Part shown: in pieces, positions 4,853 through 37,991 of the stretch
How positions within the stretch are numbered: position 1 is the first letter of the stretch
Layout: each line of letters begins with the position of its first letter
From: a virus
Virus record (IMG/VR): IMGVR_UViG_3300017917_003388
Location: 32,001 to 96,000 of that record
Direction: 5' to 3' (one strand)
Length of the DNA stretch: 64,000 nt
Notes under the pieces: model-generated
Told to the model about the DNA's origin: nothing
What the model saw: the letters and a program-made list of their open reading frames with translations, nothing else
Database searches by the model: none
Program-made: the position numbers and the translations under genes

Positions 4853-5544
4853 ATTTTAGACCAATCAGTTAAAGGTGATAACCAAGCTGTTTCTCCATGA
4901 GTTGAATATCCAGGTATTGGTGTTACTAGTCCACGTTGTTTTTCATTTCTTAAAGTTAAAAACATGTGGAAATCATTTGGATGTGTTCCTGATGTAAACT
5001 CTCTTAGAATTGCTTCGTCTTGTTTTAAAGTACTTACTTTGGCGGCAAATGTCATGGTTGTAGAGTTTGTTAGTTTCCAATGGCAAGAATCTGTTAACAT
5101 TAATCTTGTTACTTCTCCACCATCTTCTACAAATGGATTTGCTCCATTAATATATTTATCTGGATGATCATATAAAGATACATAATGGAATCCTAAACTA
5201 AAACCTTCTTCTAGTATTTTATCTGAGTTTGGTTTATGAAGATAATCATTTTCTAAAAAATAAACTATTTCATCATCTGGAAAAGTTAGAGCCATATCTA
5301 AGGCTAAATTAAATGTTCCTGCTCCATGACCTATAGAAACTTTTTGTATAGCATTTTTAGTAATATATTTGTTAATCATATCTAATGTAGGTTCACTACA
5401 ATTATCGGCTATAACATACCATATTGCTTTATCTAATTTCTCTACAGCATTTTTTAAACAATTTTCATTATTAATGTAATCTGGTTTTACTTTAGAATAT
5501 CCAGTGTCACTTATTCTATATATTATTCTTAATTTATTTTCCAT
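4849..5544 (-). CDS. GT-A fold glycosyltransferase-like protein
   Basis: IADNCS, YFLENDYLH; start moved to MENKLRIIYRISD. Confidence 0.7.
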   Translation of the reverse strand: MENKLRIIYRISDTGYSKVKPDYINNENCLKNAVEKLDKAIWYVIADNCSEPTLDMINKYITKNAIQKVSIGHGAGTFNLALDMALTFPDDEIVYFLENDYLHKPNSDKILEEGFSLGFHYVSLYDHPDKYINGANPFVEDGGEVTRLMLTDSCHWKLTNSTTMTFAAKVSTLKQDEAILREFTSGTHPNDFHMFLTLRNEKQRGLVTPIPGYSTHGETAWLSPLTDWSKI

Positions 5545-6360
5545 ATATATCCATATGCTGTTTTTCTTTTTCCATGGCAACATTCATTTATTGCTGCTGA
5601 GCCTTTAGGTTTATTTATTGTTATTGCGGCTTCTGTTTGTGATTTATATTTTTTTATGAAATTACCTTCTAAATCAAATTGTAAGACTGGTTTAGATTTA
5701 TTTATACTATTTTCCAATTTAAATTTTTCTGATCTGTTTTTCCCTAAATGTCCTTTGTTTGGGCTTGTTCTACCTTTATGAGCTTTTGATACTCCAGGTT
5801 TGGGAATACCCAAATGTTTTATTCTTCGTTTATAATTAGATTCTGGTGATTGTTTTTGATTTTTCTTTTTATTACTAATTTTAAGTCCAAATCCTTCTGG
5901 TTTAGGTTTTCCTTTGTTAGCCTTACTTATTTTTTGTTTAGTTTCTTTATTAATTGGTTTTCCTTTTAATTTTTCACTAGTTGAGGGTCGTTTTTGTCCT
6001 TTTCTTTTTTCTCTACTTTTTTCAATGGATTCTTTATTATGTTTAGTTAATCCACCTCCCCCATTATTCTTATTCTTTAAATCGAATCCCCAACTTCGGA
6101 ATAAACTTATATAATGTTTTTCCCAAAATTTCCATTCACCTATATTTACATAGTCAATTTCTTCAATTTTTAATTGTATTTTATTTGATTTCCATTTATG
6201 ATGACTTAATCTACGAGATATATTATTTGTTTTTCCTATATATATTGGTTTTTCTTTTTCTATTAAAACATATATATAACATTTTTCTTCTTTCATTTTA
6301 TAATAAATATTATAAAAACTATAGAGAGACCACCATATCACTTATTCTATATATTATTCT
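5507..6360. repeat. 23-bp perfect direct repeat (5507-5529 and 6338-6360) flanking the HEG
   Basis: tcacttattctatatattattct at both positions; covers the RIIYRISD codons on the minus strand. Confidence 0.9.
5529..6296 (-). mobile_element. Free-standing GIY-YIG homing endonuclease (NUMOD3/NUMOD1)
   Basis: YIYVL...IYIGKT; KPVLQFDLEGNFIK...KTAYGYIWK; flanked by 23-bp direct repeats. Confidence 0.85.
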
Positions 6361-7034
6361 CATTTTTTAACTAATGCTGAAGTTATACTTCTGAATTTAT
6401 ATTGGGGTTCTTGATTAGGATTAAATTTATTATGGATTTCAATAATATCTATATTTTCATTTAAATATCTATTTTGTTCTGGGTTCAAGTATATACTATT
6501 AAATGATTCCATTAAATAATATAAAGTTGTATTTTTTCTATTTTCATGAATATCTATATATTTCCCATATAGTGGATATCCATTATCAGCTAAAGATGTA
6601 TGTAAATCTTCTATAAAATATATCCCTTTAGATTTCAACAATGGAAATAAATAACCTAAAGTAATTTGTTGATCAAACATATGATGACTTCCATCATCTA
6701 ATATAACATCAAATTCATATCCTTTAGATATACATTCATTATAAAAATTAACAAGTTGGGAAGGTTGAGATTGATCTAATTGAAAAGTATATATTCTATC
6801 ATTATTATATTTACTTTTATCTTCAATATCTAATCCTATTATTATACTATTAGGTAAATATTCATACCACGTGTTAAGTGATTTACCATGACATACTCCT
6901 ATTTCTAATATTAGAAGGGAATTATTTTTTATAGGTTCTAAATATTTTTCATAAAACGAAGCATATGAATGTTTAGGACCTATTTCTGTACCTTTATCAG
7001 ATTGGTATTTATTAAATAAACTATTTAAATCCAT
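6360..7034 (-). CDS. Class I SAM-dependent O-methyltransferase
   Basis: LEIGVCHGKS, GLDI, ILDDGSH, IEDLH. Confidence 0.85.
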   Translation of the reverse strand: MDLNSLFNKYQSDKGTEIGPKHSYASFYEKYLEPIKNNSLLILEIGVCHGKSLNTWYEYLPNSIIIGLDIEDKSKYNNDRIYTFQLDQSQPSQLVNFYNECISKGYEFDVILDDGSHHMFDQQITLGYLFPLLKSKGIYFIEDLHTSLADNGYPLYGKYIDIHENRKNTTLYYLMESFNSIYLNPEQNRYLNENIDIIEIHNKFNPNQEPQYKFRSITSALVKK

Positions 7035-7035
7035 T

Positions 7036-7617
7036 TTATTTACTAGCTTTTATACAAAGTGAATCAAATGTACTCAGATTATATCCAAGTTCTACAAGAT
7101 ATTCAGTTATTTTTCTTAAATTTTCACCCCCATAGAATGGTCCATCAGAATGAGCTGCTTCAAATATTATATTTCTAAAATCATATTTTGAAAAATCAAT
7201 ACTAGCTATTATATGAACATCTAATCCTTCAGCATCTATGAATAAATAATCAACATATGTTAGATTATATTTATCCATTAATTGATTAATACTTAAACAC
7301 TGAACATCCATTGATAATACAGGATATTGTTCTAAAGAAGGACTATGGTATTTAGTATGATAATAATCAAATGAACTTACTTCATAATTACTATCTTTAA
7401 GATAATACAATTTAGTATTTTTAATAGTTTCATCATTAGATATAGCTATATTTTCTATAATTGTTTTACCAATGTTTTTATATTGGGATTTCAGATCATC
7501 AATAATAAAAGGAATTGGTTCTACTAATATTAATAATTCTAAATCATCTATATTTTCATTAACAAAATCATATACATGATCCTTACCATTATTAGCACCT
7601 ATTTGTATTATTTTCAT
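7036..7617 (-). CDS. FkbM-family methyltransferase
   Basis: QIGANNG, VEP, IDAEGLD. Confidence 0.85.
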   Translation of the reverse strand: MKIIQIGANNGKDHVYDFVNENIDDLELLILVEPIPFIIDDLKSQYKNIGKTIIENIAISNDETIKNTKLYYLKDSNYEVSSFDYYHTKYHSPSLEQYPVLSMDVQCLSINQLMDKYNLTYVDYLFIDAEGLDVHIIASIDFSKYDFRNIIFEAAHSDGPFYGGENLRKITEYLVELGYNLSTFDSLCIKASK

Positions 7618-7841
7618 ATTAGTTTACTATAGTAATTATTTTGTTTTTCTTGTTTTTCTATGGTTTTCGGATGATATAATGCATATTCTTCTAATTCTGG
7701 TAAATTAGCATATGTTTTATACCCATCTAATACTTCATGTATTTTATTTTTCCATTTAATTTCAGAAGTATTTTTATAAATACGCCATTGCATATCACTC
7801 CATTGAATAATTGGTTTGTAGTATTTTACTTTAATTTTCAT
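7614..7841 (-). CDS. C-terminal fragment of a split GT2 glycosyltransferase
   Basis: DMQWRIYKN...WKNKIHEVL...LYHPK is the usual continuation of the GT2 at 8541-9080. Confidence 0.75.
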   Translation of the reverse strand: MKIKVKYYKPIIQWSDMQWRIYKNTSEIKWKNKIHEVLDGYKTYANLPELEEYALYHPKTIEKQEKQNNYYSKLI

Positions 7842-7857
7842 AATTGAATATAATAAA

Positions 7858-8511
7858 TTAATTTTTGTATCTCCAAATATAGCCCCCAGCTGATTTATTT
7901 ACTCCGTTATTTCTGGCGTTCCCAGCGATTACGGATGGGTTAATTTTTAATTCAAAACTAGCATTTTTAACACTTTCCCATTCTTTAATAAGGTTTCCTT
8001 GTTTATCATACTGTAAAACAGGTTTAGAGTTCCTTTTAATTAATTCTTTCACAAAGGTTTCATTTCTTTTTTTTCCTTTATTGATTTTACTAATTTTTTC
8101 TCCAAATCCTTTAGGCTTAGGTTTAGAATTAGCTTTACCTATTTTTTTATTTCGTTCTTCACTTTTAATTTTATCTCCAAATCCTTTAGGTTTAGGTTTA
8201 TTTTTAGTAAAATTGTTCCATTTCTTTTTTATATATTCATATTCTCTAGAAGAAACAATGTATTTCGTTTTTTTATTTTTATTTATAGACATTAAAAATA
8301 AAGCATACCATAACTTTTGATTGTTTGGATAAATTTCACAAAGTAATTTATGACATAAAAAGTGTTCTCGTGCTGTTAGTTCTACTAAATTTTCTTCTTC
8401 ATCCAAACCACCCATACATCTTGGTATGATATGGTGGTTTTCTTTATAGTCTTCTAATTTACGAGTTTTAGCACGTTCTATAATTTGGTTGTAAATTTTT
8501 ATATATTCCAT
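7858..8511 (-). mobile_element. Free-standing HNH homing endonuclease (NUMOD3/NUMOD1)
   Basis: ENHHIIPRCMGG...NLVELTAREHFLCH; C-terminal NUMOD1. Confidence 0.85.
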
Positions 8512-8540
8512 ATAGATAATATTTATTATAAATATAACAT

Positions 8541-9080
8541 CTATTCGGAAGATATAACCCTTTCCTCAATAATTAAGTTATTTTGTTTTAGTAAATTATA
8601 CTCATCTAAATCTTTTGGATTAGATAAATCAAATACTTTTTCTTCTTTTATATTTTCTAATTTGCTTATTTTCCAGTTCCATTTTTGAACATGGGATAAC
8701 CCTATTCTTTCAACAGTATTTACTCTTGGTACTAAAATTACATCAGTTGTATTATTTTCCAGAATATATGGGATATTTTTTATCAAATATGGATTAGGAA
8801 TCTCATCTGCATCTAAATTTATTATTACGTCGCCTGAGCATAATGAATTTAATGTATTTTTCCAATTTGCGAAATGTCCTTCAAATTTTCCTTCATACCA
8901 ATTGAATTCTCCATTTACTGAGTGAGATCTTAGGTAATCTTCTACAGCATTACAATTTTTGGATTTATCAAATAATATTACAATTTCATCTTCTAAACGT
9001 TTATGTTCAAGTAAAAAATTAACTAAACGTTGAATTTCCATTATTTCATCACATACTGTGATCCCATATGAAATTTTCAT
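8541..9080 (-). CDS. N-terminal fragment of a split GT2 glycosyltransferase
   Basis: ISYGITVCDE, LDADE (DxD), VPRVN. Confidence 0.8.
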   Translation of the reverse strand: MKISYGITVCDEIMEIQRLVNFLLEHKRLEDEIVILFDKSKNCNAVEDYLRSHSVNGEFNWYEGKFEGHFANWKNTLNSLCSGDVIINLDADEIPNPYLIKNIPYILENNTTDVILVPRVNTVERIGLSHVQKWNWKISKLENIKEEKVFDLSNPKDLDEYNLLKQNNLIIEERVISSE

Positions 9081-9149
9081 ATAACTTAATTATTAATTTT
9101 ATATTAATTGAATATATATAAATTTTTTATAAACCCCAATTTAAAAAAA

Positions 9150-9605
9150 TTATTCAAATATCCCTATATATTCTAAAGCATCTATGAAATTATAAGTATC
9201 GAATGTTTCCATAGTAGTCATATCCATACGATATTCATAAAATTCTCCAGATTTTCCTTTGATTGGATATTTCTCTTTTTCTTCTTCGGTAATACGCACC
9301 GCTTTAACTGCTGCCCATTTTGCATTGTCTTTAGATGTACCATTGTAAAATATCATACCTTGATTTGGAATATTAATTGTTGTCGGCATCCATTCCAGAC
9401 CATTTTCATCTTTAAATATTACATCTTTGTAAAGTTCAGGAAGAATTTCTAATTGTTGTTTATAAAATTCTTCTCCTTCTTTCATTAAACTATTGGTTGT
9501 AAAACCACATCCAAAACAATTATATGTTTTAATTTCTGGGGTATTTTCTATTACATAACATGCATCTGATTTTCCACAGGGGCACATATTTAAATTATCT
9601 ATCAT
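9150..9605 (-). CDS. Hypothetical protein with an N-terminal Cys cluster
   Basis: CPCG...C...CFGCG. Confidence 0.65.
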   Translation of the reverse strand: MIDNLNMCPCGKSDACYVIENTPEIKTYNCFGCGFTTNSLMKEGEEFYKQQLEILPELYKDVIFKDENGLEWMPTTINIPNQGMIFYNGTSKDNAKWAAVKAVRITEEEKEKYPIKGKSGEFYEYRMDMTTMETFDTYNFIDALEYIGIFE

Positions 9606-9619
9606 TTTTATTTAATATT

Positions 9620-9817
9620 TTAAAGATTTTTTTCAATTATATTTTTGTATTCTTCTAATAATTTAGGATTTGGTTTTGAATTAAGTATGTTAGTTTTTAC
9701 AACGAATTCATTTAATTTTTTACCCAAAAGTCTTTCAGATGTTTTTTTATTTATTTCATCTAAAAGATATTTTTTGAAATATTTAAAATCTGAAAGAAAT
9801 GTTATCAGTTTATTCAT
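9620..9817 (-). CDS. Hypothetical protein
   Basis: ORF track; start moved to MNKLIT. Confidence 0.5.
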   Translation of the reverse strand: MNKLITFLSDFKYFKKYLLDEINKKTSERLLGKKLNEFVVKTNILNSKPNPKLLEEYKNIIEKNL

Positions 9818-10373
9818 TTTGGTTTTTTTTAATTTTGATTGAGATTTTATCTTTATTTCCATCAGCATGAGAAAAAACAACATGTGTTGGATGAAGATCA
9901 AATTCTAATCCATCCATTAAATTAGCATATTTATCTCCTTCTCCTGATTTAATATACCCTATGGTTAAATGTGGTTTATAATCTTTAAAGGTAGAAGTAT
10001 AAGGATATTTTTTTAAACTATTATTAATATTTATTAAATCACTAGTATCTTTTGATTCAAATTTTAACACATCATATTTATCATTTTTGAATAACGATGC
10101 ATTATTTATAGTATATTTTTCTTTAAATTCAAAACCATCTATTACTTTTTTAATATCATCTAAAGTAACTTCAGAATGTAACCCATATAGTAAAGTTATA
10201 TGAGGTTCATCTTCTAAACCATATGTTTTATCTCCATCTTCTATATATATATCCCATTCATTTATAATTTTATGGATAGTTTTAATTAAAGGAAAATCAA
10301 AATATAACATTACACATCCAAATTCATATGTACTTGATGAATTTTCTTTAAGTAAATTTGTTAATTTGATCAT
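9810..10373 (-). CDS. 2H phosphoesterase (Acb1/T4 57B-like or 2'-5' RNA ligase-like)
   Basis: Two HxT motifs: EPHITLLYG and KPHLTIGY. Confidence 0.8.
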   Translation of the reverse strand: MIKLTNLLKENSSSTYEFGCVMLYFDFPLIKTIHKIINEWDIYIEDGDKTYGLEDEPHITLLYGLHSEVTLDDIKKVIDGFEFKEKYTINNASLFKNDKYDVLKFESKDTSDLININNSLKKYPYTSTFKDYKPHLTIGYIKSGEGDKYANLMDGLEFDLHPTHVVFSHADGNKDKISIKIKKNQNE

Positions 10374-10376
10374 ATA

Positions 10377-11666
10377 TTATTGTTTTATTTTTTGTAATGT
10401 GGGAAGTATAAGTTGGGTTTGCTTGGGAAATTCAGGAATAATATCTAAATATTCTTTCAATTTTTCAGTCATTTTTTCAAATGAAAAATTTTGTTTAGCA
10501 AAAAATGATTGTCTTGTCGCTCCATCTTTATAATTTTTATAATTTTCAAATACATCTCTTAATATATTAAATACTTGATTTACATCAGGAGAAAACCATT
10601 TAGCTTCAGATAATAACATATTATTAGCAGCACTTGGATGAACATTTGTTAATTTGCCTCCAATTAATGGAGAAAATTCAGCTTTTAAAAAATCAATATG
10701 GCCACTCCAATTAGTTGTAATTATTGGTTTTTTACTTTGAGTAAATTCAAGTAATGGACGACCGAAACCTTCTCCTTTAGTTAATGACACCATTGCTTTA
10801 ACCTTAGGATGATTATATATATAGTTCATTTCAATATCTGTAAATTCTCCATGGAGTAAATATATATTTGGTAAATCAACAGAATTTACAGTTGAACGTA
10901 TAGATGATATTCTTTTTAAAATTTCATCTCTATCCATATAAGATGAACCAACTATCGATGTTTTTAAAATCAATGCAGGTTTTTGTTTTTTATTTTTAAA
11001 TGTTTCCAAAAATGTTTTTATTAATAAACCTACATTTTTACGATCTTCCCCTAAATTACCTGGAAGCCATGTTCCGCAGAATAAGAAACAAAAATCTTCT
11101 TTAATATCGTCTCTTAATGTTTTAACAACTGGGTTAGAAATATCTGGTAAAATCTTATTGTATGTATTTGTATCTATTCCTTCAAACAATACTTCCATTT
11201 TAGTTTTTAATTCAATAATTCCTTCAATCTGTTTAGTTTGATTATTGGTTTTATTAAATTTAGAATTTATAAAGCTTTGTTTTGAATGTTCTGATGATAC
11301 TAGTACTAAATCCATTCTATTACAACCTTCGATCCATTCTGCTGGTACTATATCTGTTTCTAATCCTGCAGTGATACCAATATTATATTTACCTATTTTT
11401 TGAAATTCGTTAGGTACTGTAATCCATATAAAAATATCAGGTTGAGATGTTAGAGGCCCACTATGTATGTATTTAGTTAGAAAATCCCATTCTTTATTTT
11501 CTTCAATATAACCATGGGGACAGTTTCCCCAGTTACATGGAATTATTTTTATATCCCATTCATTCTGTTTTAATTCAATTAATGATTTAACTATATCTCT
11601 ACTTCTTTGTGAATATCCACTATATACATCTATAGGACAATATATAAAACAACTATTTTTATTCAT
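10377..11666 (-). CDS. GT-B (GT4-like) glycosyltransferase
   Basis: DRKNVG, GEGFGRPLLE, TNWSG. Confidence 0.85.
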   Translation of the reverse strand: MNKNSCFIYCPIDVYSGYSQRSRDIVKSLIELKQNEWDIKIIPCNWGNCPHGYIEENKEWDFLTKYIHSGPLTSQPDIFIWITVPNEFQKIGKYNIGITAGLETDIVPAEWIEGCNRMDLVLVSSEHSKQSFINSKFNKTNNQTKQIEGIIELKTKMEVLFEGIDTNTYNKILPDISNPVVKTLRDDIKEDFCFLFCGTWLPGNLGEDRKNVGLLIKTFLETFKNKKQKPALILKTSIVGSSYMDRDEILKRISSIRSTVNSVDLPNIYLLHGEFTDIEMNYIYNHPKVKAMVSLTKGEGFGRPLLEFTQSKKPIITTNWSGHIDFLKAEFSPLIGGKLTNVHPSAANNMLLSEAKWFSPDVNQVFNILRDVFENYKNYKDGATRQSFFAKQNFSFEKMTEKLKEYLDIIPEFPKQTQLILPTLQKIKQ

Positions 11667-11672
11667 AATTTT

Positions 11673-12350: not shown

Positions 12351-12351
12351 A

Positions 12352-25308: not shown

Positions 25309-25926
25309 ATGAGTTTAAAACATTTTCAATCAAAAATAGGTGTTCAAGCAGATGGAGATTTTGGTCCAGGAACATTTTTAGCCGCAATGAAATATTTAAA
25401 ACTTACTCCAATTAGAGCAGCTCATTTTTTTGGTCAAACATCACATGAAACTAATGAATTTTTAATATTTACTGAAAATTTAAATTATTCTGAATCCGGT
25501 TTGAAGACTACTTTTGGTAAATATTTCCCTGGTAACTTAGCATCACAATATGCTCGTCAACCTGAAAAAATTGCTAATAGAGTATATGCTAATAGAATGG
25601 GGAATGGAAATGAAAATTCGGGGGATGGATGGAAATTTAGAGGTAGAGGTGCTATTCAATTAACAGGTAGAGAAAATTATTTAGCATTTTCTAAATATAT
25701 AAATAAACCCGAAATAATGGTTAATCCAGATTTAGTATCTAATGAGTATGCTTTTGAATCAGCATTGTTTTTCTTTGATAAAAATAAATTATGGAATATA
25801 TGTGATGGTGGAATTGACAAAAACACAATATTAAAATTAACTCAAAGGATAAATGGAGGTACCAATGGTTTATCGGATCGTGAGTCTAAAACTATAAAAT
25901 ATTATAGATATTATACTTTAGGTTAG
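25309..25926 (+). CDS. GH19 endolysin with an N-terminal peptidoglycan-binding-like motif
   Basis: DGDFGPGT; HET...ENLNYS; FRGRGAIQLTGRENY; INGGTNG. Confidence 0.9.
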   Translation: MSLKHFQSKIGVQADGDFGPGTFLAAMKYLKLTPIRAAHFFGQTSHETNEFLIFTENLNYSESGLKTTFGKYFPGNLASQYARQPEKIANRVYANRMGNGNENSGDGWKFRGRGAIQLTGRENYLAFSKYINKPEIMVNPDLVSNEYAFESALFFFDKNKLWNICDGGIDKNTILKLTQRINGGTNGLSDRESKTIKYYRYYTLG

Positions 25927-25952
25927 TTTGATAATGGTACTTTAATTGTTGT
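25923..25952 (-). pseudogene. Orphaned former thyA 3' end (TTIKVPLSN*)
   Basis: Matches the present thyA end PTIKLPLSN* on the other side of the HEG. Confidence 0.8.
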
Positions 25953-25962
25953 AATATAATAA

Positions 25963-26742
25963 TTATTCTTTGTATTTCCAAACATAATCAAAAGCGGTTT
26001 TTTGTCTTCCTTTTAAACAAGCTGTTATACATGAATTGTTGATTGATTTTCCAAAATATTCAAGAGCATCTTTAATAGATTTAAACTCCTGAATTATATT
26101 ATTTTGTTGATCAAGTTGAAGAATGGGTTTACTATTTTTTTCTCCTATTAATTTATGATCAATCCTTGATTTAATTAAATTTCCAAATCCTGGGGGTTTA
26201 GGTTTAGAATTAGCTTTACTTATTTTTTGCTTAGTTTCCTCAGAGATAGGTATTCCTTTATTACTATGAACTTTACTATGTTTTTTACCTTTATTTCCTT
26301 TGCTAATTTTTTCTTTCATTTCACCACTCATAAATCCATCAGGTTTAGGTTTACCTTTATTACCATGGATTCTTCCTTCAGGTATATTATATTTTTGTCC
26401 TGTTTTAGCTTGAACTATTTTTTGTTTTTGCTCTTCAGTAAATTTATTTCCTAAAGCAATAATCTCCCCTCCAATACTTTTGTTTAGTAATATACCATCA
26501 GGTTCTATTCCTTTTCTTCCATATTTAGCTATAAATTCCATCTCAAGAGAACATGCTTCTTCTTTAGTAAGATTTTCTTTAATTATATCTACTATAGGTT
26601 CACCATGTTTTTTAATATAATTCTTATAATGAGAATTCCTTCCTGAGATAAAATCCCATGCTCTTTTATTTGCCCCTATTCCAACATAGAATAACTCTTT
26701 AGTTAGTGGGTTTTTATGATGGTATAAATAATAATTTTCCAT
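25963..26742 (-). mobile_element. Free-standing GIY-YIG-like homing endonuclease (NUMOD3/NUMOD1)
   Basis: YLYHH...FYVGIG...RA; KPILQLD...KTAFDYVWKY. Confidence 0.85.
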
Positions 26743-26795
26743 AAGTCTATCAATATTCCGTTGATTATAAATATATGAAAAATATATTTTTTACA

Positions 26796-27908
26796 CTAAT
26801 TTGATAATGGAAGTTTAATAGTAGGATGATATTGATAACCAATTAATTCAAAATCACTAACTTTATAATGAGATATGTCATCAATATTACTATATATTTT
26901 TAATGTAGGTAATTCAAATGGTTTTCTATTTAATTGTTCCTTAATAGGTTCTACATGATCTAAGTATAAATGTACATCTCCTAAATTTCCTATTAATTCA
27001 TCTGGGATCATATTAACTTGTTTAGCAATCATTTCTAATAATAAACCATAAGATGCTATATTAAAACCTAATCCTAACCCAGTATCTACTGAACGTTGAT
27101 TCCACATTAATGATATTGCTCTACGAGGAATATTTATATCATCTAATTGCTTATGTAATTGTTCATCTTCATCAACTTTCGTAAAAAACTTTATGTTTAA
27201 TGATACTTCATAATGATTAGAACCAGCTATAAACCCTCTTTCTTGTAAACTTAATTCTCTAGTATAGAACTGGAAAAAGTTATGACATGGTCTTAATATC
27301 ATTTCATCCAACTCACCAACATTCCAGGCAGATACAATTATACCTCTATCATCTGGATTTGTTTTAAGTTTTTCAAGAGCTTCTTTAATTTGGTCAACAG
27401 ATTTTCTACTTGGGATTTCACCCATATACGACACCAATTCACCATATTCCCAACTTCTCCATTGCTTACCATAAATTGGCCCCAATTCACCCCACGTCTT
27501 AGCAAAGTCATCATCTGTTTTGATTTTGTTGATGAATTCTTCTTGTGTATATAAAGTTGCACCAGAATGACCATTATCTAATAAAACAGGTTTTAACCAT
27601 TTAGGATTAGAATTAAATTGATTATGTGTTATATAGTTCTTATAAGCATCACCATCCCAAATATGACAATTGTTATCAACAAGGAATTTGATGTTGGTAT
27701 CACCACGTAAAAACCATAGTAGTTCTGTTACAATTTGTTTCCAACCCATCTTTTTGGTTGTAAGAAGTGGAAACCCTTCACTCATTTTATGACGGATTTG
27801 TCTACCGAATACTGATAGGGTTCCAGTACCAGTTCTGTCTTTCTTTTCTACTCCATTGTCAAGAATGTCTTGAAGGAGTGCTGTATATGTTTTATCTAGG
27901 TTGTTCAT
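26796..27908 (-). CDS. thyA: Thymidylate synthase
   Basis: DRTGTGT, LGPIYGKQWR, RPCH, QRSVD...FNIASY. Confidence 0.95.
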   Translation of the reverse strand: MNNLDKTYTALLQDILDNGVEKKDRTGTGTLSVFGRQIRHKMSEGFPLLTTKKMGWKQIVTELLWFLRGDTNIKFLVDNNCHIWDGDAYKNYITHNQFNSNPKWLKPVLLDNGHSGATLYTQEEFINKIKTDDDFAKTWGELGPIYGKQWRSWEYGELVSYMGEIPSRKSVDQIKEALEKLKTNPDDRGIIVSAWNVGELDEMILRPCHNFFQFYTRELSLQERGFIAGSNHYEVSLNIKFFTKVDEDEQLHKQLDDINIPRRAISLMWNQRSVDTGLGLGFNIASYGLLLEMIAKQVNMIPDELIGNLGDVHLYLDHVEPIKEQLNRKPFELPTLKIYSNIDDISHYKVSDFELIGYQYHPTIKLPLSN

Positions 27909-28071
27909 TTTTTAAATAATATCTTTCACATTCAGGTTGAATACATCCAATAGACCGACCAAAAAATACAAATCTTTTTATTTCGGTAGATTTACATATT
28001 GGACAAGTTCCATAAGTACCTTCCGTTATTATTCTAGTTAGTGGTGGTTTTGGTTTATCTAGGTTGTTCAT
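27892..28071 (-). CDS. 59-aa zinc-ribbon protein that begins with the thyA start sequence
   Basis: Manual translation MNNLDKPKPPLTRIITEGTYGTCPICKSTEIKRFVFFGRSIGCIQPECERYYLKNEQPR. Confidence 0.65.
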   Translation of the reverse strand: MNNLDKPKPPLTRIITEGTYGTCPICKSTEIKRFVFFGRSIGCIQPECERYYLKNEQPR

Positions 28072-28256
28072 TCTTTAATTAATTTACTTCTTAAATCCTT
28101 AAGTATTATATACCAATTATTGGCTTGTTCTGTATTATATTTCATATCACGTTTTTCACCATAGGTTACTTTCATACTATAATGTTGAAAATTATTCCAA
28201 GTTGTTTTGTATTCTTGGAGGTGGTCTGTGTATGTTTTATCTAGATTGTTACTCAT
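28068..28256 (-). CDS. Hypothetical protein with a thyA-like N-terminus
   Basis: MSNNLDKTYTDHLQ versus ThyA MNNLDKTYTALLQ. Confidence 0.6.
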   Translation of the reverse strand: MSNNLDKTYTDHLQEYKTTWNNFQHYSMKVTYGEKRDMKYNTEQANNWYIILKDLRSKLIKE

Positions 28257-29749: not shown

Positions 29750-30172
29750 TTATTTGTTTAATTGTGTTAAAATTGAGTTTAATCCTTTTAATTCATTTTT
29801 ATTAGAATGATCAGATATAGAAGATTGATATTTGGATATAAATCTATTAATAATTCTAAACATTAATTTACTAAAAAATGGATCCACATATGTTTCCATA
29901 AATAAATTATGATTAGACATTTTAATCATATTTCCTTTAATTATCACCGAATATTCCTTATCTTCGGTTTGCATATATACTTTTTTAATATTAGAATCCA
30001 AAGCTTCAGGATTAACTAATATTGATGATTTAGGATTAGATAATATTTTTACAACTATATTTTTTATAAGTTGTTCATTAGGATTTAATTTTCTATTACC
30101 ATTATAAGATTTTCTCATGCGGCTTTTTCTACGAAGATAAGACCACTTAAAAAACAATTTGACTTTTTTCAT
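29750..30172 (-). CDS. Hypothetical protein
   Basis: ORF track. Confidence 0.6.
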   Translation of the reverse strand: MKKVKLFFKWSYLRRKSRMRKSYNGNRKLNPNEQLIKNIVVKILSNPKSSILVNPEALDSNIKKVYMQTEDKEYSVIIKGNMIKMSNHNLFMETYVDPFFSKLMFRIINRFISKYQSSISDHSNKNELKGLNSILTQLNK

Positions 30173-30230
30173 ATAACTTATTTTGAGTTTGTTTTATAAA
30201 TATATAAAAAATAAAATGTAATCCTAGTTT

Positions 30231-31178
30231 TTAATCCGTAAAAAGTTCAACATTTATTGGATCACAACATGGTAACTCATTTACATATAAAGTATCACTA
30301 ATTTCAAATATAGGACATGTATATAAATAATTGACATTTATTATAGATGGAGCTGATATATTTTCAGATATATTATATCCTGTATTTATTAATACACCAT
30401 TTATAAACCATTGAGGTAAATTAATCGGACCATTAGGTGTAAATCTCCAAGCTTCTGGAGTATTGATAGTATACACACTTGTATTTCTGTTTACAGGAAA
30501 TGAAGCAATAGTACCTAAATTATTTTGTATACCTAAACAAGCTCTTCCTCCATTCCATGTATTACATGTTTGTTTTTTATTAACATATATGTCAATTATA
30601 TTAGTAAATTCATGTAATACTATTTGAAATGTAGATATTAAATTATTACATTGGAAATGTGGGATTTGATAAAAGCTTACAATTAACTTTCTATACGGAG
30701 ATACTCCTATTACACCATATCTAACAGTACCCCCAATTGATGGATCAATATCATGATATAAACCTATCATTGATCTTGGGAAGTTTGCAACATTTGTTGG
30801 TATAGATGCATTAAAAGCCCAAGGAGAAAACTGATTAGCATATGTTAGATTAAAACTTATAATACCATTAGTACTAATTACATATTTATTATAAGTTTGC
30901 CCATAAAAACAAAAATTAAATGGTAAATTTATTATTTGAGACCATACATCATCGATAGGGATGTTATATAAAGTACCGGTATTATAAGGATAAGGATTAT
31001 AAGGGATTGGTGATACTAAATAGGATGTAGTATTATATGTTATTGTATCTAAATCACAAGTTAAATTGAGAGAAATGTCACCACATATAGTAGTGTCATT
31101 TCCTCCCAATATATTAATTGTGGGTGTTTGTGAAAATAATAAATTAGATATTAATAGTAGTCCTAATAATAGTCTCAT
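30231..31178 (-). CDS. Secreted Bacteroidota-type surface/adhesin-like protein
   Basis: Signal peptide ending LFSQ; DDVWSQIINLPFNFCFYGQTY...STNG.ISF; EAWRFTP. Confidence 0.65.
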   Translation of the reverse strand: MRLLLGLLLISNLLFSQTPTINILGGNDTTICGDISLNLTCDLDTITYNTTSYLVSPIPYNPYPYNTGTLYNIPIDDVWSQIINLPFNFCFYGQTYNKYVISTNGIISFNLTYANQFSPWAFNASIPTNVANFPRSMIGLYHDIDPSIGGTVRYGVIGVSPYRKLIVSFYQIPHFQCNNLISTFQIVLHEFTNIIDIYVNKKQTCNTWNGGRACLGIQNNLGTIASFPVNRNTSVYTINTPEAWRFTPNGPINLPQWFINGVLINTGYNISENISAPSIINVNYLYTCPIFEISDTLYVNELPCCDPINVELFTD

Positions 31179-31357
31179 GGTTTTGGAATTCTTGATTCTT
31201 TAATACCCTTTAATTCTATAAGTGAATTTAATATAGATATAGACATGGGATTTCTATATAATTTATTTGATAACTCCATAAATTTAATTTGATCATCTAA
31301 TTTAGTTGAACTTATTGAAGGTAGTTCATTTAATAATTTTGACATTTGTTCTTCCAT
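31175..31357 (-). CDS. Hypothetical protein
   Basis: ORF track. Confidence 0.55.
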   Translation of the reverse strand: MEEQMSKLLNELPSISSTKLDDQIKFMELSNKLYRNPMSISILNSLIELKGIKESRIPKP

Positions 31358-31360
31358 AAT

Positions 31361-32071
31361 TTATACATTTAATGTTTTTAATTTTTCTTCAATATTGTCA
31401 TTATAAGATAATATAAGTAAATCAATATTGTTATCCAAACAATATTGCTTTTTTATTTCATCTCTTTGTTTAAGGTATTCAAATCCTTTTTCACCTCCAA
31501 AAAATGTAACTGGTTTATAATGTTGTAAACCATTATACTCAATTAACATATTATGTTTGGGTAAATAAAAATCATAATAATGATATGAATCTTTAATTTT
31601 TACTTGATATTGATAGATATATTCTATATTATTTCTATTTAACCAAATACCTACTTGTTCTTCTCCTTTATATATATTACATTCAGGACAGTTACTTTTT
31701 GCATATAAATGAATAGATGGTTTTTGAAAAAAAGATCCATGTTTTGAACATATAATTTCTACTTCCTGATAAAGATTTTGGTAGTTTATTTTAGAGTAAT
31801 CATATATGTCATTATGGATCTTTTTTGCTCTTTCTAAGAATTGTTCTTTTGTTATTTGTTTAGGATTAGGTCTTCGATTTTGACATTTTAAACACCCAAA
31901 TCCTTTATATAATACTGATGGTGGTTTGTTTTCTATATTTCCACAGTTTTTACATATCAATTTAACATTAGAATGAGCATCTTTATAAGATAATAAAGAA
32001 TAATCAAATTTATCTATACCAAATTTAGATTCTATTCGTTTTATGAAATCGTCTTGAGTTAACTTATGCAT
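31361..32071 (-). mobile_element. Free-standing endonuclease (zinc-binding repeats plus PD-(D/E)XK/DUF559-like domain)
   Basis: Two YDYS...C..C/H...C..C repeats; YDFYLP...IEYNGLQHY. Confidence 0.8.
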
Positions 32072-32106
32072 ATATTTTTATTATAAATATATGGAATAAA
32101 ACTCTT

Positions 32107-33012
32107 TTATACGTTAATTACACGATCCCAAGCTGAGATATGTAATCTTGTTAATCCTCTAAACATATATTTCTTACTCATTTCTAATACAAATTGAGTA
32201 CGTTCATGGAAGTCAGTTTGACTATCTAAACCTGGCATACAAACAATGTTTTTAAGTGGTATTTTAAATGGTTCAATAAAATCACGGAATATTTCCTTAA
32301 CATCATCTTCAGTTGAAATAACAAACTTAAATTGATAGTTATGGTGTTCCATAATACGTTGAATAGCTGCAGGAACTATTCTTTGTTTCTCAGTCATACC
32401 TGAGTTGGATAGCTTAGGTGAACAGTTGATTTGGTCTAGTAGACTAAATAGTGGATGGTCAATTATGATTGTACCATTAGTTTCTATTTCGTAATAAGGT
32501 CCGTTTTTAACATAGATAAAATTATTATAATCTTTTTTATGACCATGTAATGACGGATAATCTTCATATCCTACTATGTCAATCCCTTGATTGTCAATCC
32601 AATATTTAGTAAAATTAACAATGGCTTCTTGATGTCCTTTAATTGTAGGTTCTCCACCTGTCCAAATGATATGGATAGTACCATTTCTAATCTGTTCATA
32701 GATACCCTGCTCTTTCCATTGATCAATTAGGTATTGGAAATCTTTTTCTTCACCTCTCCATAACCATTGAGAAGTACTATCACAAGTCCAAGTTGCTTTA
32801 CCTTCTAACTCTAAATCGCCTTTGAATATTTCGCCATCTTCTAATGATTTTTCTTTAGCTAATTGGTTAGTAAACTTACGAGACATACCGCAAGTTAAGT
32901 TACAAATACCTAAACGAATGAAATATGATGGTATACCTGTTGAAAAACCTTCCCCTTGGACTGAAAAAAAATCACTTGATATGAGTAACTTGTTTGGATC
33001 TATTTTTGACAT
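32107..33012 (-). CDS. queE: 7-carboxy-7-deazaguanine synthase (radical SAM)
   Basis: FFSVQGEG, RLGICNLTC...CDS, TGGEP, IETNGT, SPKLSNSG. Confidence 0.9.
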   Translation of the reverse strand: MSKIDPNKLLISSDFFSVQGEGFSTGIPSYFIRLGICNLTCGMSRKFTNQLAKEKSLEDGEIFKGDLELEGKATWTCDSTSQWLWRGEEKDFQYLIDQWKEQGIYEQIRNGTIHIIWTGGEPTIKGHQEAIVNFTKYWIDNQGIDIVGYEDYPSLHGHKKDYNNFIYVKNGPYYEIETNGTIIIDHPLFSLLDQINCSPKLSNSGMTEKQRIVPAAIQRIMEHHNYQFKFVISTEDDVKEIFRDFIEPFKIPLKNIVCMPGLDSQTDFHERTQFVLEMSKKYMFRGLTRLHISAWDRVINV

Positions 33013-33039
33013 ATTTATTTTAATTTATTATTTATAAAA

Positions 33040-33630
33040 TCATCCTTTTTTGGATATATTTTGTTTTCTATCATCATACTCTATAATTCCTTTATTTAAT
33101 GCATATTGTGATATTTCATATCTTCTTTCTAAATTAAAAGCATTCCACTCTTTAGTCGAAATACTTTCTGCTAAACATTCAGTCCAACAATTTGGAGTTT
33201 CATAAATTGTTACTTTATGAATTTTTAAACCAGTTAAAGCGTCTTTATATAAAGTATTAGATAATATTTCCATTGCTAAAAATACTTCTTTAGCAATATT
33301 TTCTACTGATGGATTACAATATTCTCCTGCTCCATTTAAACTCATTAACCATAATTTAGTACCATATTCTTTTGTAGTCTCAATCAACTTATAATCATGT
33401 GGGTTTAAAATCATTCCATGATCTAAAATATCATCAATCCATTGGCAAAATACTCTTTTTATTTCTTTAAAATCAATAGCATACCCTATTTCTTCCATGT
33501 TTTCAAAACTAAAAGTTAATTCATATAAATAAGTATGCCCATGAATATTATAACATTTCATAAATTCATTCATAACTCTATGACCTGAATCAAAATTGCC
33601 TTTTCGACTTATGTATTGTATTTTTTTCAT
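33040..33630 (-). CDS. queD: 6-carboxytetrahydropterin synthase
   Basis: FDSGHR, CYNIHGHTY, LDH, NPSVENIA, ETP. Confidence 0.9.
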   Translation of the reverse strand: MKKIQYISRKGNFDSGHRVMNEFMKCYNIHGHTYLYELTFSFENMEEIGYAIDFKEIKRVFCQWIDDILDHGMILNPHDYKLIETTKEYGTKLWLMSLNGAGEYCNPSVENIAKEVFLAMEILSNTLYKDALTGLKIHKVTIYETPNCWTECLAESISTKEWNAFNLERRYEISQYALNKGIIEYDDRKQNISKKG

Positions 33631-33646
33631 AAATTAAATATGTTGA

Positions 33647-34306
33647 TTAATTTTTATATTTCCAAATATAACCATATGCTGTTTTTTGGATTCCTCTACA
33701 ACAAAAACATAAACCACTATTGTGGAAACCCAAATTTTTTGTAATATCTTTAAAAGATTCCCATTCTTTAATAAAGATTCCATCTAAACTATATTGAAGG
33801 ATAGGTAAACATCTTTTCCCTTTCATATTAATTTTTTTATCTTCAGGGAATTTTTTTCCTTTTTTAGATAATGATATTTTTAATTTTATTTCATCAGAAT
33901 ATTTTCTTCCTATAGCTTTAGAAGACATTTTTTGTTTAGTTTCTTCACTATGTTTTCTTCCTTTATTTCCTATCCCTATTTTCTTTCTATGTTCTTTAGA
34001 TTTTGGCCCTCCACCAACATCATATAAATTACAAAATAAAACTCTTTTCCAATTCCCCTTAGATTGATTAAGATAGTATTGTTTCCAATATATTTCTCGT
34101 TCATTTAATTGTTCATTAGAACATTCTTCAACTATTTCAAAAATATGATTTTCAGGGCCATATTTTTTAAGTGAATTATAAAGTTTGGGTTGTTGTTTAC
34201 AAGTTAAATTTTTATAACTATATTTCCATCTAATTTCTATATCTTTAGCTTGACCAATATATATTTTTCCTTTTGGATTTGTGATTTTATAAATTCCTAT
34301 ACTCAT
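33647..34306 (-). mobile_element. Free-standing GIY-YIG homing endonuclease
   Basis: IGIYKITNPKGKIYIGQ; NUMOD3 and NUMOD1. Confidence 0.9.
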
Positions 34307-34367
34307 AATTGTTATTTTATTATAAATATATAAAATCCAAAATCTACTACCCAGTTACAAAATATAT

Positions 34368-34616
34368 TTATCCATTAATTAAATTATTTAATTGTGATGA
34401 ATTTAATGCTCCAACATAACGACGTACTTCATTACCATTTTCTAAAATAATAGTTGTTGGAATACTTTTAACATTAAATTTACTAGTATATACAGCATCA
34501 TAATCTACATCTATTTTATTTATTTGGGTTCCGGATGTTGATGCTTGTTCTATAACTGGATTTGTTTTTTGGCAGGATGGACACCACCCTGCCGTAAAAT
34601 ATAATACTTGTTTCAT
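34368..34616 (-). CDS. Thioredoxin
   Basis: WCPSC, SIPT. Confidence 0.85.
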   Translation of the reverse strand: MKQVLYFTAGWCPSCQKTNPVIEQASTSGTQINKIDVDYDAVYTSKFNVKSIPTTIILENGNEVRRYVGALNSSQLNNLING

Positions 34617-34619
34617 TTT

Positions 34620-34934
34620 TTAAGATTTTGAATTCATTAATTGTTCTTTTTCTTTTTTTAATTGAGCTGCCTTCTCATAATCTTCAGATTTAACTGCAAT
34701 TTTAATTTGTTTATCAAGCTCAATTAATTTTTGTTTTGTTTCATCTATGATTGGGAAAGATTCAGAACTAGTAATTTTAGTTGTTCCATCACTAGATACA
34801 AATGTTCTTGTGATAGTTTTAAATCCATCTTTTTCTTCGGTAGATTCGGTTACAGTTCCTTGTTTTTTAAGAGCTTCCCAATCGTGTTCTGTGTTAAAAT
34901 TAAATGTACTGTTACTAAAAAAATCGAAAATCAT
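34620..34934 (-). CDS. UVR (UvrB/UvrC)-motif protein
   Basis: IKIAVKSEDYEKAAQLKKE. Confidence 0.7.
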   Translation of the reverse strand: MIFDFFSNSTFNFNTEHDWEALKKQGTVTESTEEKDGFKTITRTFVSSDGTTKITSSESFPIIDETKQKLIELDKQIKIAVKSEDYEKAAQLKKEKEQLMNSKS

Positions 34935-34997
34935 AATTTTTAATTTTTATGGGTTAATAATATTTGTTTTAAATATAAATAATATTTTAATGTAGTC

Positions 34998-35699
34998 TTA
35001 GTTTTTGAATTTCCAAATGTATTTATATGCTGTTTTTCTTTTTTCATTACAACATTCACTTATGGCAGAACTAGTTTTATTTAATGATTTTCCAGCTTCT
35101 GTAGCACTAATCCATTCTTTAATAAAATTTCCTTTTTTATCATATTGTAGAACAGGTTTAGTTTTAACCCAATCTACTTTTCTTCCTTCTAATTTAGATG
35201 ATATTTTCTTATTTCTTATAGACTCTTTTTTATAATGTTCCAAATTAGAAGTTTTTATTTTTTCTCCTCTTTTAGGATTTTTATAACATTCATGTTCTAT
35301 TTTAGAATTTTTTATTTTATCTTTAGTATTTTGTGATAGATTTTTTCCTTTAAATCTTTTACTAACATCAGGGCGTTTTATTCCTTTTAATTTTTTAGAA
35401 GTTTCAGGTCTTAAAGTATTTTTCATCTTATGTTTAGATTCTTCTGTGTGAAAGGATAACCCACCACCTCCATCATTTTTATTTAATAAAATAAAACCCC
35501 AACTTTTATAAAGTGATACATAATGTTTTTCCCAAAACTTCCAATCTTTTTCATTTATGTAGTCTAACTCAAATATGTTTAAATCTTTATTTAATCTACT
35601 TTTATGTTGGGATTCTCTTATTTTTAAACTATTTTTAGTTTTTCCTATATAAAAAGGAATATCTTTGTTATTTAATAAACAATAAATGTAAATTTTCAT
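34998..35699 (-). mobile_element. Free-standing GIY-YIG homing endonuclease
   Basis: IYIYCL...FYIGKT; NUMOD1. Confidence 0.85.
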
Positions 35700-35732
35700 A
35701 ATATATCAGTCTATGCGGTACGACTATAAATA

Positions 35733-36677
35733 TCATGATTTCTCACTTCTTTCCCATTCATCACAAATTTTTTCAACATATTCTTTAACAAATTCCCAAG
35801 ATACTAAAGTACCATCTTCTTCAGCATATTGAACTGGGTCTTCTAATCCTAATTTGATAAAAGATTCACAACGTTCAATACTAGAGCCTGATTTATAGTC
35901 TGAGTACCATATTTCTCTTTCTCCAGATTCTATTTCTTCATTAGGGAATGTTGATTTTAAACTTGGAAGAATTACTCTGATAGGAGCATAACTAGTATTA
36001 GTACGTTTATAAATTTCTTTATAATCTAGACCTAATTTTTCACAGCATTCAACCCCATCTTTTAATACTCCTGTTTTATCAGTAACATTATACGGAGCAT
36101 AATAATCTACTTTATCAGAATCCCAATTTCCTATTTTAAAAGCATGTTCAATAGCTTGTCTGAATTCTTCAGAGCAATCAGGATAAATTCCGCTTTGTTT
36201 TTTATTATTGAAATCACCCATATGGGTTCCTAAAGCTATATTACATGGTTCTCCTGTTTTTTTTACTATAGATAAAGCAACAGCATATGTAATGGCTGAA
36301 AATATCGCATTACGATTTGGAACTACAGTTGTAAGAGCATTTTCATGAGCATAATGTCCTGTTTTCATTTCCATAGAATTATTATCTACTAACCCACTTA
36401 CTAGTAAATTTGATAAACCATCTAATTTAATAATTTGATGTTTAACACAATGATAAGGAGGAGTATTTTGATCAATCCACTTAAATCCTCTTTCTCGTCC
36501 TTCATTAATATATTGTACTAACTCAGTAGCGCGTTCCAATTCAACTTTATGTTTTTGACCATAATCAAATGATAGTGCTGTTACTTCATAACCATTTGCT
36601 AATAGATGAAGTAACAATGTACTACTATCCATTCCTCCACTTAATGACAGTACAGCATATTTTTGTTTATTTTTCAT
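35733..36677 (-). CDS. queC: 7-cyano-7-deazaguanine synthase
   Basis: SGGMDS, FDYGQKH, VPNRN, YPDC. Confidence 0.9.
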   Translation of the reverse strand: MKNKQKYAVLSLSGGMDSSTLLLHLLANGYEVTALSFDYGQKHKVELERATELVQYINEGRERGFKWIDQNTPPYHCVKHQIIKLDGLSNLLVSGLVDNNSMEMKTGHYAHENALTTVVPNRNAIFSAITYAVALSIVKKTGEPCNIALGTHMGDFNNKKQSGIYPDCSEEFRQAIEHAFKIGNWDSDKVDYYAPYNVTDKTGVLKDGVECCEKLGLDYKEIYKRTNTSYAPIRVILPSLKSTFPNEEIESGEREIWYSDYKSGSSIERCESFIKLGLEDPVQYAEEDGTLVSWEFVKEYVEKICDEWERSEKS

Positions 36678-36921
36678 TTTTAATTAGATTTTTTATTTTA
36701 TTATTTGAAAATGCTTCTACCAAAAATTTATAAGGATATATTAAAATTCGTTTATTTTCATGATTACTCCAAGGAACTTGTTTTGATGAAATTTTTATTT
36801 TGTTTTTTTTAGATAATTTATATATTTCATATCCTAAATTTTTATCTATAGAACCTGCACTAGTTCCTCCTAAAAAATCATAAATTGATATAAACCCGTT
36901 ATTTTCAGTATTTTCATTCAT
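36667..36921 (-). CDS. Hypothetical protein
   Basis: ORF track. Confidence 0.55.
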   Translation of the reverse strand: MNENTENNGFISIYDFLGGTSAGSIDKNLGYEIYKLSKKNKIKISSKQVPWSNHENKRILIYPYKFLVEAFSNNKIKNLIKNEK

Positions 36922-37019
36922 TTTATATAACTTTTAAATAATTTTATATTTTGTAATATAAGTTCAATTTGTATGAAATCCAAATCTTTATCAAAAAATT
37001 CTTCAATTTTTTCTTCTCT
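36918..37019 (-). pseudogene. Orphaned former 3' end of the 37197-37991 gene
   Basis: REEKIEEFFDKDLDFIQIELILQNIKLFKSYIK* aligns without gaps to the present C-terminus. Confidence 0.75.
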
Positions 37020-37042
37020 TCATCTCAATCTTTAGCTAACAT

Positions 37043-37196
37043 TTAAATTTTGTATTTCCATATAAATCCATAAGCTTTTTTTTGTTGTCCTCTACAACAA
37101 GCTACTATTCCTGTTCTTTTTTCTTCAATATTGAATAATTCAATTGCTGCTTTTTAATGGATTCCCATTCTTTAATAAAATTTCCTTAAGGGAATA
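37043..37196 (-). pseudogene. Degenerate NUMOD1 relic of a lost HEG
   Basis: YSL/GNFIKEWESIK/AAIEL...IVACCRGQQKKAYGFIWKYKI* with two frameshifts. Confidence 0.8.
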
Positions 37197-37991
37197 TTAT
37201 TTGGGAAGGATTTTTTTAAATTCTTTTATATTAAATTCGATACATTCTAATTGTCTATTATTTGTTTTTTTATTAAACCAAACTTCTATTTTTTCTTCAG
37301 GTTTATTCCAACAATTATCAAATGTATATTTTAATTCTTTTAAACCAAAAATAATTGGATTACTAGTATCTATAGTTTTAATAAATGAATATTGTGGGTT
37401 TTGGTATGCTCTGAATTCTAAAAAATTTGAAGTACCCAACATATGATGATGTATGTGGTTTTGGATTATATTATTTTTTTTTAATTGATTTATAAAATAT
37501 ATTCTTCCCATCATTTTAGATACTGATAGATTTTCATGTGGGAAAAAATCTTGATATGCTGTTGAACTATGATTAAATGCAATAGCTTCAACTCCTAAAT
37601 CAACATATCGTTTATATAATGAAGAGCCTATTTCATAATCAGTACATTGGATCACAGCCATTAATTTAGTTGTTTCTGGGAGTGAATTTTTTATATTTAC
37701 CCAATGTTTAGCATTTTCTAAACTTAATAAAGCATCGTTCCATACATCTGGAATAACAAATATATCTGGTTGGAGTTCATTAATAAATTCAATTAATTGT
37801 TGTTCGGTAAATGAATCTCCTTCAAATAATCCATTATCTGCAATTATAAATCTACCATCTTTTTTAGCATTTTTATAATATTCCTTATATGGTTCAGATT
37901 TAAACCAATAGGTGGGTAGGCAAAATTCATAATCATTCCATTCCTTGCTTTTGTCCAAAAGACATAGAGGTAATTCGTGTGATACTTTCAT
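37197..37991 (-). CDS. TGT/DpdA-like TIM-barrel protein (candidate deazaguanine transglycosylase)
   Basis: IADNG, PDV, AVIQ, HMLG, IDTS motif order resembles TGT; upstream of queC. Confidence 0.55.
   Translation of the reverse strand: MKVSHELPLCLLDKSKEWNDYEFCLPTYWFKSEPYKEYYKNAKKDGRFIIADNGLFEGDSFTEQQLIEFINELQPDIFVIPDVWNDALLSLENAKHWVNIKNSLPETTKLMAVIQCTDYEIGSSLYKRYVDLGVEAIAFNHSSTAYQDFFPHENLSVSKMMGRIYFINQLKKNNIIQNHIHHHMLGTSNFLEFRAYQNPQYSFIKTIDTSNPIIFGLKELKYTFDNCWNKPEEKIEVWFNKKTNNRQLECIEFNIKEFKKILPK

Follow-up and report, generated by a model that had tools for sequence, protein, structure and literature searches.

How can an endonuclease gene free of any intron or intein sit inside the end of a conserved phage gene and leave that gene whole? 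The question is raised by a 64,000-nucleotide (nt) stretch of DNA (the window; bases 32001-96000 of the 174.7-kb IMG/VR record IMGVR_UViG_3300017917_003388, which has terminal repeats) from an uncultured, T4-like phage with Bacteroidota-type hosts. Homing endonuclease genes, or the remnant of one, lie here at the ends of thyA, queC, queE, a queC-linked gene and a conserved gene of no assigned family. The comparisons reported below make it likely that free-standing endonuclease cassettes entered these genes a few codons from an end, carrying a replacement for that end.

The window has a GC content of ~27% and is coded almost entirely on the minus strand, where all the endonuclease genes listed below are found. 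Coordinates are those of the window, and L-numbers denote the relatives' loci used for comparison. The nearest named relative is Flavobacterium phage immuto (thyA DNA ~68% identical), the top thyA relative shares 68% protein identity, and no near-identical genome was on hand for comparison. Endonucleases were identified by Pfam, PHROG and NCBIfam profile searches; DNA repeat scores at gene termini were judged against 200 shuffles, and protein-level repeats by z or 300 shuffles.

Evidence for terminus replacement at the queC-linked gene

The clearest case is a gene linked to queC, at which the following features are found:

37197-37991, minus strand: queC-linked gene, phrog_19058, possibly DpdA/TGT-like; its last ~80 codons (~37197-37436) are the endonuclease-linked allele
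37043-37153, minus strand: GIY-YIG/NUMOD endonuclease remnant, comprising the C-terminal ~36 codons (37046-37153) and the stop only
36921-37019, minus strand: orphan copy of the 3' end of 37197-37991, on the far side of the remnant

The orphan and the final 31 codons of the gene are 48% identical at the protein level (z 8.2, equalled by 0 of 300 shuffles), and the stop codon of the orphan overlaps the ATG of the next gene (ATGA) just as it does in endonuclease-free relatives. In L084-L090, which are free of the endonuclease, the gene itself ends in the orphan-type sequence of the window and overlaps the next gene. L082 and L083 combine an intact GIY-YIG gene of 259 amino acids (aa) with the live-type tail of the window. 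The ancestry of the gene is mosaic, its body in the window being closest to L084 (162/183) and its tail to L082 (54/78). The same discontinuity separates L082 from L085, which agree at 180 of 183 positions of the body versus 35 of 76 in the tail. On the DNA level the two loci share 98.6% identity as far as the left junction and 94.8% identity past the right one. Where L085 has 157 nt of the old gene, L082 has a 1032-nt cassette made up of a new tail, a leader and the endonuclease; the final 71 nt of that gene persist in L082 as an orphan, within which the endonuclease open reading frame (ORF) terminates. This pair is the cleanest evidence for terminus replacement.

The initial annotation of this DNA, made from its letters alone, had placed an endonuclease gene here and called the interrupted gene TGT-like. 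GIY-YIG/NUMOD sequence is indeed present, as a remnant only. For the gene product, no matches were obtained among Pfam, NCBIfam and PDB sequences; its AlphaFold model is poor (pLDDT 57), and Foldseek searches with it repeatedly returned tRNA-guanine transglycosylases (TGT) at E ~0.01-0.03. At such values the TGT-like label stays a lead, with weak support from the fold.

The 3' ends of queC and queE

Two neighbouring genes have a comparable layout:

35733-36677, minus strand: queC, with an endonuclease-linked live tail (...EYVEKICDEWERSEKS)
34998-35732, minus strand: cassette H5, a leader and the GIY-YIG/NUMOD1 ORF 34998-35699
34940-34969, minus strand: orphan queC 3' end, KQILLTHKN and stop, after the stop of 34998-35699
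32107-33012, minus strand: queE, with the live tail DRVINV and stop
31361-32106, minus strand: cassette Hx, a leader with a promoter-like motif (32080-32090) and the Vsr/DUF559-like ORF 31361-32071

The queC orphan is visible only by comparison with relatives; within the window, no DNA flank repeats above shuffles were found for 34998-35699, nor for 7858-8511, 33647-34306 or 57966-58904. Aligned with the end of queC in endonuclease-free L084, the orphan is identical at 28 of 30 nt, and its distance to the ATG of the next gene is 5 nt in the window and 4 nt in L084. The live queC tail differs from the orphan, and the same tail type and leader recur in endonuclease-carrying L200, whose endonuclease is 70% identical to that of H5 and frameshifted. 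The queC 3' end was absent from the list of four loci drawn up previously and is added here as a fifth.

For queE, the search for a duplicate within the window gave chance-level results on both the DNA and the protein level (z below 1.2). Endonuclease-free relatives end queE in NKTLNV and a stop, and ORF 31361-32071 ends in KTLNV and a stop, its final 18 nt (31378-31361) being identical to the relatives' queE end at 17 positions, stop codon included. The live tail differs from the ancestral NKTLNV version at 8 of 15 nt after a conserved GCTTGG, and an orthologous endonuclease lies behind queE with the same DRVINV tail in L204. From this alignment, 31361-31378 is probably the orphan queE end.

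Endonuclease-carrying relatives share the live tails of the window at all three genes (L082 and L083 for the queC-linked gene, L200 for queC, L204 for queE). It had been predicted that the orphan would join the gene body in relatives without the endonuclease, and at each of the three genes those relatives do end in the orphan version, with the spacing to or overlap with the next gene kept. The contrary outcome, namely that endonuclease-free relatives also carry both copies, is not what these genes display, one terminus only being present; some thyA relatives without an endonuclease do carry both, with other ORFs between them.

The thyA 3' end and its relatives

The thyA locus was compared across 80 relatives, with tail statistics computed on 61 non-redundant loci. 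The window contains:

26796-27908, minus strand: thyA, with its last 12 codons (26796-26831) forming part of the imported cassette that is shared with L007
25963-26795, minus strand: cassette H3, a 53-nt leader and the GIY-YIG/NUMOD3 ORF 25963-26742
25923-25958, minus strand: orphan thyA 3' end, YITTIKVPLSN and stop, immediately 3' of the H3 stop codon

The leader of H3 holds a promoter-like motif at 26764-26774, and its endonuclease shares 89% protein identity with the L007 ortholog. Alignment of 26822..26766 with 25949..25893 gives a score of 40 (shuffle maximum 32), and the orphan core (25949-25923) differs from the family consensus tail at only 2 of 27 positions. Comparison with L007 locates the boundary of the imported DNA: identity over the thyA body is ~38-95% per 60-nt block (mean roughly 68%), steps up to 92-98% exactly 35 nt before the thyA stop, stays high across the leader and for most of the endonuclease, and is gone beyond the orphan. 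The relationship to L002 is of another kind, the last ~240 nt of thyA being 97-100% identical to the window versus 73-87% with indels in the body, and the identity stopping at the thyA stop codon. By its outline this 240-nt tract appears co-conversion-like.

A GIY-YIG gene follows the thyA stop in 24 of the 80 relatives, and in 23 of these 24 it starts 54-64 nt past that stop. The tails next to an endonuclease are recoded: the conserved Ala of the IKAP motif is lost in 16 of 17 of them, to M, L, I or F, versus 11 of 44 others (Fisher p = 8e-7), and they contain more mismatches to the consensus (Mann-Whitney p = 7e-5), neither test being corrected for relatedness. Orphan thyA tails were found only downstream of the gene and on the same strand, with 16 matches in 276 kb as compared to 0 in 806 kb of control sequence. 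In small ORFs lying behind thyA, the final codons are often the orphan tail read in a different frame (..TPSN, ..TPNN).

A 5'-end version of the layout

At one locus the duplicated terminus is the start of a gene:

6338-6366, minus strand: orphan 5' end of gene 4849-5532, MRIIYRISD and 5 more codons, ATG intact
5529-6337, minus strand: cassette H1, a 41-nt leader and a GIY-YIG/NUMOD ORF (ATG 6296, stop 5529-5531)
4849-5544, minus strand: target gene, 227-aa conserved core, no family assigned; live 5' copy 5507-5535

The two copies (6366..6338 and 5535..5507) are identical at 27 of 29 nt (score 48, best of 200 shuffles 35) and both encode RIIYRISD (z 6.9). In the orphan, the ATG shares bases with the TGA that ends the methyltransferase gene upstream. 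In the live copy, within which the H1 stop codon falls, TTA stands in place of the native ATG, so that translation must begin at ATG 5544 or 5583, inside the last codons of the endonuclease. All of 80 relatives of the target gene begin with M(R/K)IIYRISD at a single start, and among them neither a second copy of the terminus nor an endonuclease was found at this site. The closest relative of the H1 endonuclease is only 41% identical; when the flanks of 11 distant homologs were inspected for repeats, one was clear (L193, z 8.6) and one weak (L194, z 4.8). The initial annotation had described the target gene as a glycosyltransferase, a label that found no family support in the profile searches.

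Of the four loci at which that annotation had reported duplicated termini, three (this 5' end, thyA and the queC-linked gene) are visible as such in the window; the fourth, queE, is an 18-nt stub seen only through relatives.

Nucleases, leaders and the absence of introns

The endonuclease genes fall into the following groups, the remnant at 37043-37153 having been listed above:

5529-6296, 25963-26742, 33647-34306 and 34998-35699, minus strand: intact GIY-YIG genes with NUMOD
7858-8511, minus strand: HNH gene with NUMOD
31361-32071 and 57963-58799, minus strand: genes with a Vsr/DUF559-like C-terminal domain

The ORFs pair a nuclease domain with a DNA-binding module (Pfam GIY-YIG, NUMOD1/3 and I-HmuI NUMOD-like), and a phrog_559 match at 1e-49 is among their hits. 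Vsr/DUF559 was recognised in the paralog 57963-58799, with which 31361-32071 has its C-terminal domain in common. The claim that at least two nuclease classes are involved is borne out, GIY-YIG, HNH and Vsr/DUF559-like genes all being identified by profiles. The loci are also intronless, as proposed: no group I intron or other Rfam family reached threshold in 4000-39000, and the target genes reach their own stop codon ahead of each endonuclease ORF. thyA, queC, queE and 37197-37991 are full-length and in phase, with family-typical ends, in agreement with the proposal that a replacement terminus keeps the gene whole.

The exact word ATATTTATAAT occurs 15 times in the window versus 1.8 expected, 13 of the 15 on the coding strand (for example at 8525, 26764, 32080, 34319 and 58818). 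It often lies 10-25 nt 5' of a start codon, including those of four endonuclease genes, and is probably a phage promoter element. With a likely promoter ahead of several endonuclease genes, the cassettes would bring, or sit behind, their own promoter.

Proposed mechanism and alternatives

A cassette consists of three elements: a foreign version of a gene end that is in most cases strongly diverged, a short leader containing the phage's own promoter-like motif, and the ORF of the endonuclease. The endonuclease would cut the empty allele near the gene end, and the double-strand break would be repaired from an occupied genome, with two homology arms, the conserved gene body upstream and, downstream, the sequence on the distal side of the insertion point. 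By this repair the recipient would gain the donor's gene end, as a co-conversion tract, along with the endonuclease; its own distal end would be pushed behind the cassette as an untranslated orphan, and the gene would be whole without splicing. In later transfers the orphan could act as the downstream arm, which would explain how the same cassette comes to stand ahead of unrelated downstream genes in the window and in L007. We infer that cleavage falls at or near the junction and that the recoded end protects its carrier from self-cleavage; the recoding of the live ends is consistent with such protection.

Presence/absence polymorphism with co-converted flanks is seen in the L082/L085 pair, in the identity steps relative to L007 and L002, and in the incongruence of gene bodies and tails. 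Past the endonuclease the native terminus survives, and relatives without the endonuclease resemble it more than they resemble the live copy; at the 5' locus the two copies are too alike for this comparison. The remnant at 37046-37153, the frameshifted gene of L200 and endonuclease-free alleles with a recoded tail, such as L002, agree with the familiar course of endonuclease invasion, decay and loss. In combination, these results confirm the terminus duplication first noticed in the sequence and support the interpretation given to it, the suggested destruction of the cut site being read from the recoding of the live ends.

Several observations weigh against this mechanism. About half of the checked endonuclease-carrying thyA loci have no detectable orphan. 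Orphan thyA tails flank non-endonuclease ORFs in L040, L044, L072, L022 and L002, so that terminus duplication is not exclusive to endonucleases. The large orphan of L010 goes with a non-nuclease ORF, the footprint of the endonuclease itself being only 6 nt; this locus resembles L072, in which a 57-aa ORF lies between two thyA tails without an endonuclease, with an endonuclease added. The copies at the 5' locus are the same over 26 nt and differ in the start codon alone, so no recoded replacement is visible there. The queE orphan measures only 18 nt, and its first codons overlap a possible C-terminal helix of the endonuclease (compare L205 and L206), for which reason this locus is rated probable and not certain. 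Finally, in the window itself (27868-28256, minus strand), two small non-nuclease ORFs 5' of thyA begin with copies of the thyA start:

27892-28071, minus strand: small 59-aa ORF upstream of thyA, zinc-ribbon pattern CxxC...C
28068-28256, minus strand: small ORF upstream of thyA, 62 aa

The copies comprise the first 6-13 codons of thyA, and the ORFs are linked by ATGA stop/start overlaps.

These small ORFs would find a ready place in modular shuffling, in which a gene end plus promoter serves as a portable homology patch, homologous or unequal recombination during co-infection moves any ORF in or out, and the endonucleases are mere passengers. T4-type hyperplastic regions contain promoter/stem-loop cassettes to which such patches can be likened. 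The 57-aa ORF of L072 also speaks for this explanation, as do five copies of the thyA tail within 2.4 kb of L040 (L040:1238-3630), every copy having the promoter-like motif and then a non-nuclease ORF behind it, and the recurrence of the same cargo families (MKKSELQQ.., MIRLKDLL.., MENLQIKI..) behind thyA in L040, L002, L044, L072 and L010. Shuffling as the whole explanation is nevertheless improbable. Each 3'-end case in the window has an endonuclease or its remnant as sole occupant, the offset of the endonuclease start after thyA is fixed in nearly all carriers, and strongly diverged live ends track the endonuclease across unrelated gene bodies, a pattern not expected from plain unequal crossing-over between identical patches. 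Shuffling and homing can moreover coexist if cuts mobilise cargo in trans; the non-nuclease cargo was either moved in this manner or is carried by gene-end-plus-promoter patches that recombine unaided.

A target-site duplication, in which a transposition-like or microhomology-mediated insertion copies resident sequence to both sides, would account for the near-identity of the 5' copies and for the occupation of that site in none of the relatives. It is a very unlikely origin for the loci as a group: the repeats span 6 to ~100 nt and are mostly strongly diverged (as at 37197-37991), empty alleles match the orphan and not the live copy, and the loci showed neither a transposase nor terminal inverted repeats. 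Chance resemblance between AT-rich sequences, with which the shuffle-level queE match within the window would agree, is less credible still, being refuted at 4 of the 5 loci, where the repeats beat all shuffles and the orphans correspond, in the right position, to the gene ends of relatives.

The homing of cassettes with a replacement end allows an extension that we put forward tentatively and regard as rather doubtful. A conserved gene end and its orphan might form a portable landing pad, on which successive invasions would stack cassettes closed by older orphans, the arrays carrying non-nuclease cargo mobilised in trans; possible examples are the five thyA tails of L040 and, in the window, the pair of small ORFs headed by copies of the thyA 5' end. 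Since the orphan would supply the downstream arm, a cassette could home into any phage with the gene, whatever lies beyond. If so, an array would be a dated record of invasions, and the process a general route of gene gain in these phages.

Relation to known systems

The layout is already published for fungal mitochondria. In the mobile-ORF 'gene hybrid' of Allomyces macrogynus atp6 (Paquin, Laforest and Lang 1994, as cited in PMC3630166), in mobile endonuclease ORF (mORF) hybrids of Glomus atp6, atp9, cox2 and nad3 (PMC3630166) and in those of Endoconidiophora atp6 and cob (PMC6279837), as in the window, a foreign C-terminus in phase with the gene is followed by an endonuclease ORF (LAGLIDADG or GIY-YIG in the fungi) and a left-over native C-terminus. 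In both settings, the native copy is nearer to endonuclease-free relatives than the inserted one (PMC3630166; PMC6279837). The present loci differ in being carried by a phage, in the promoter-like leader and the separate endonuclease ORF, in the Vsr-like nucleases, in the 5'-end version and in the shorter stubs (6-100 nt). In the open-access literature no phage description of duplicated termini beside homing endonucleases was found, only mitochondrial and chloroplast papers; what is added here is a well-documented phage case.

Among phage elements, the cassettes resemble T4 SegF, SegG, SegB and MobE, which are likewise free-standing GIY-YIG or HNH genes by conserved genes. Such endonucleases are inherited with co-conversion of flanking markers, and their carrier needs a resistant allele (PMC2988022). 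Unlike the loci described here, the T4 elements are found between genes on which donor and recipient are syntenic, so no terminus is duplicated; the word stem 'duplicat' is absent from the review of intronless homing (PMC2988022). Nuclease genes also mark sharp identity changes between related phages (PMC10448857), similar to the identity steps at the present endonucleases, although duplicated or orphan termini are not described there.

Endonuclease insertions that split phage genes are known from Aeh1 nrdA/mobE, T4 39/60 with mobA and phage 25 gene 43 (PMC2988022). As in the Aeh1 type, the endonucleases of the window lie inside coding sequence and function is kept without splicing; the split genes are left in two pieces, whereas at the present loci the cassette supplies a copy of the gene's end that completes it. 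The window also contains a gene in pieces of the Aeh1 nrdA/mobE kind. Its family-2 glycosyltransferase (GT2) gene is divided into an N-terminal piece (8541-9080, 179 aa) and a C-terminal piece (7614-7841, 75 aa) by the HNH/NUMOD gene 7858-8511, all on the minus strand. GT2 relatives L172-L181 have a single ORF of 201-219 aa, and in L171 the gene is split likewise, with a different GIY-YIG-like gene in the gap.

By carrying a spare gene end, endonuclease genes free of introns and inteins can occupy the most conserved and most widely shared targets within genes, and such spare ends explain why, in these phages, thyA and the genes of the 7-deazaguanine pathway have mosaic termini. For annotation, short duplicated gene ends are to be regarded as footprints and not as errors. 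The arrangement would offer a naturally occurring counterpart of engineered gene drives, a 'cut and rescue' design.

Further endonuclease genes of the window

The GIY-YIG gene 33647-34306 lies between a thioredoxin gene and a gene for a 196-aa QueD, within 33040-34380 (minus strand); this QueD is not the ortholog of the 154-172-aa QueD of the relatives. Just past the thioredoxin stop, 34375-34355 encodes MDKYIL and a stop (compare MARYIS.. in L084 and L200), a weak resemblance by which this stub may be a remnant of the ancestral queD start. The Vsr/DUF559-like gene 57963-58799 (minus strand) stands between a tail tube gene and the structural gene that follows it, and a further GIY-YIG gene (3-275, minus strand) crosses the start of the window.

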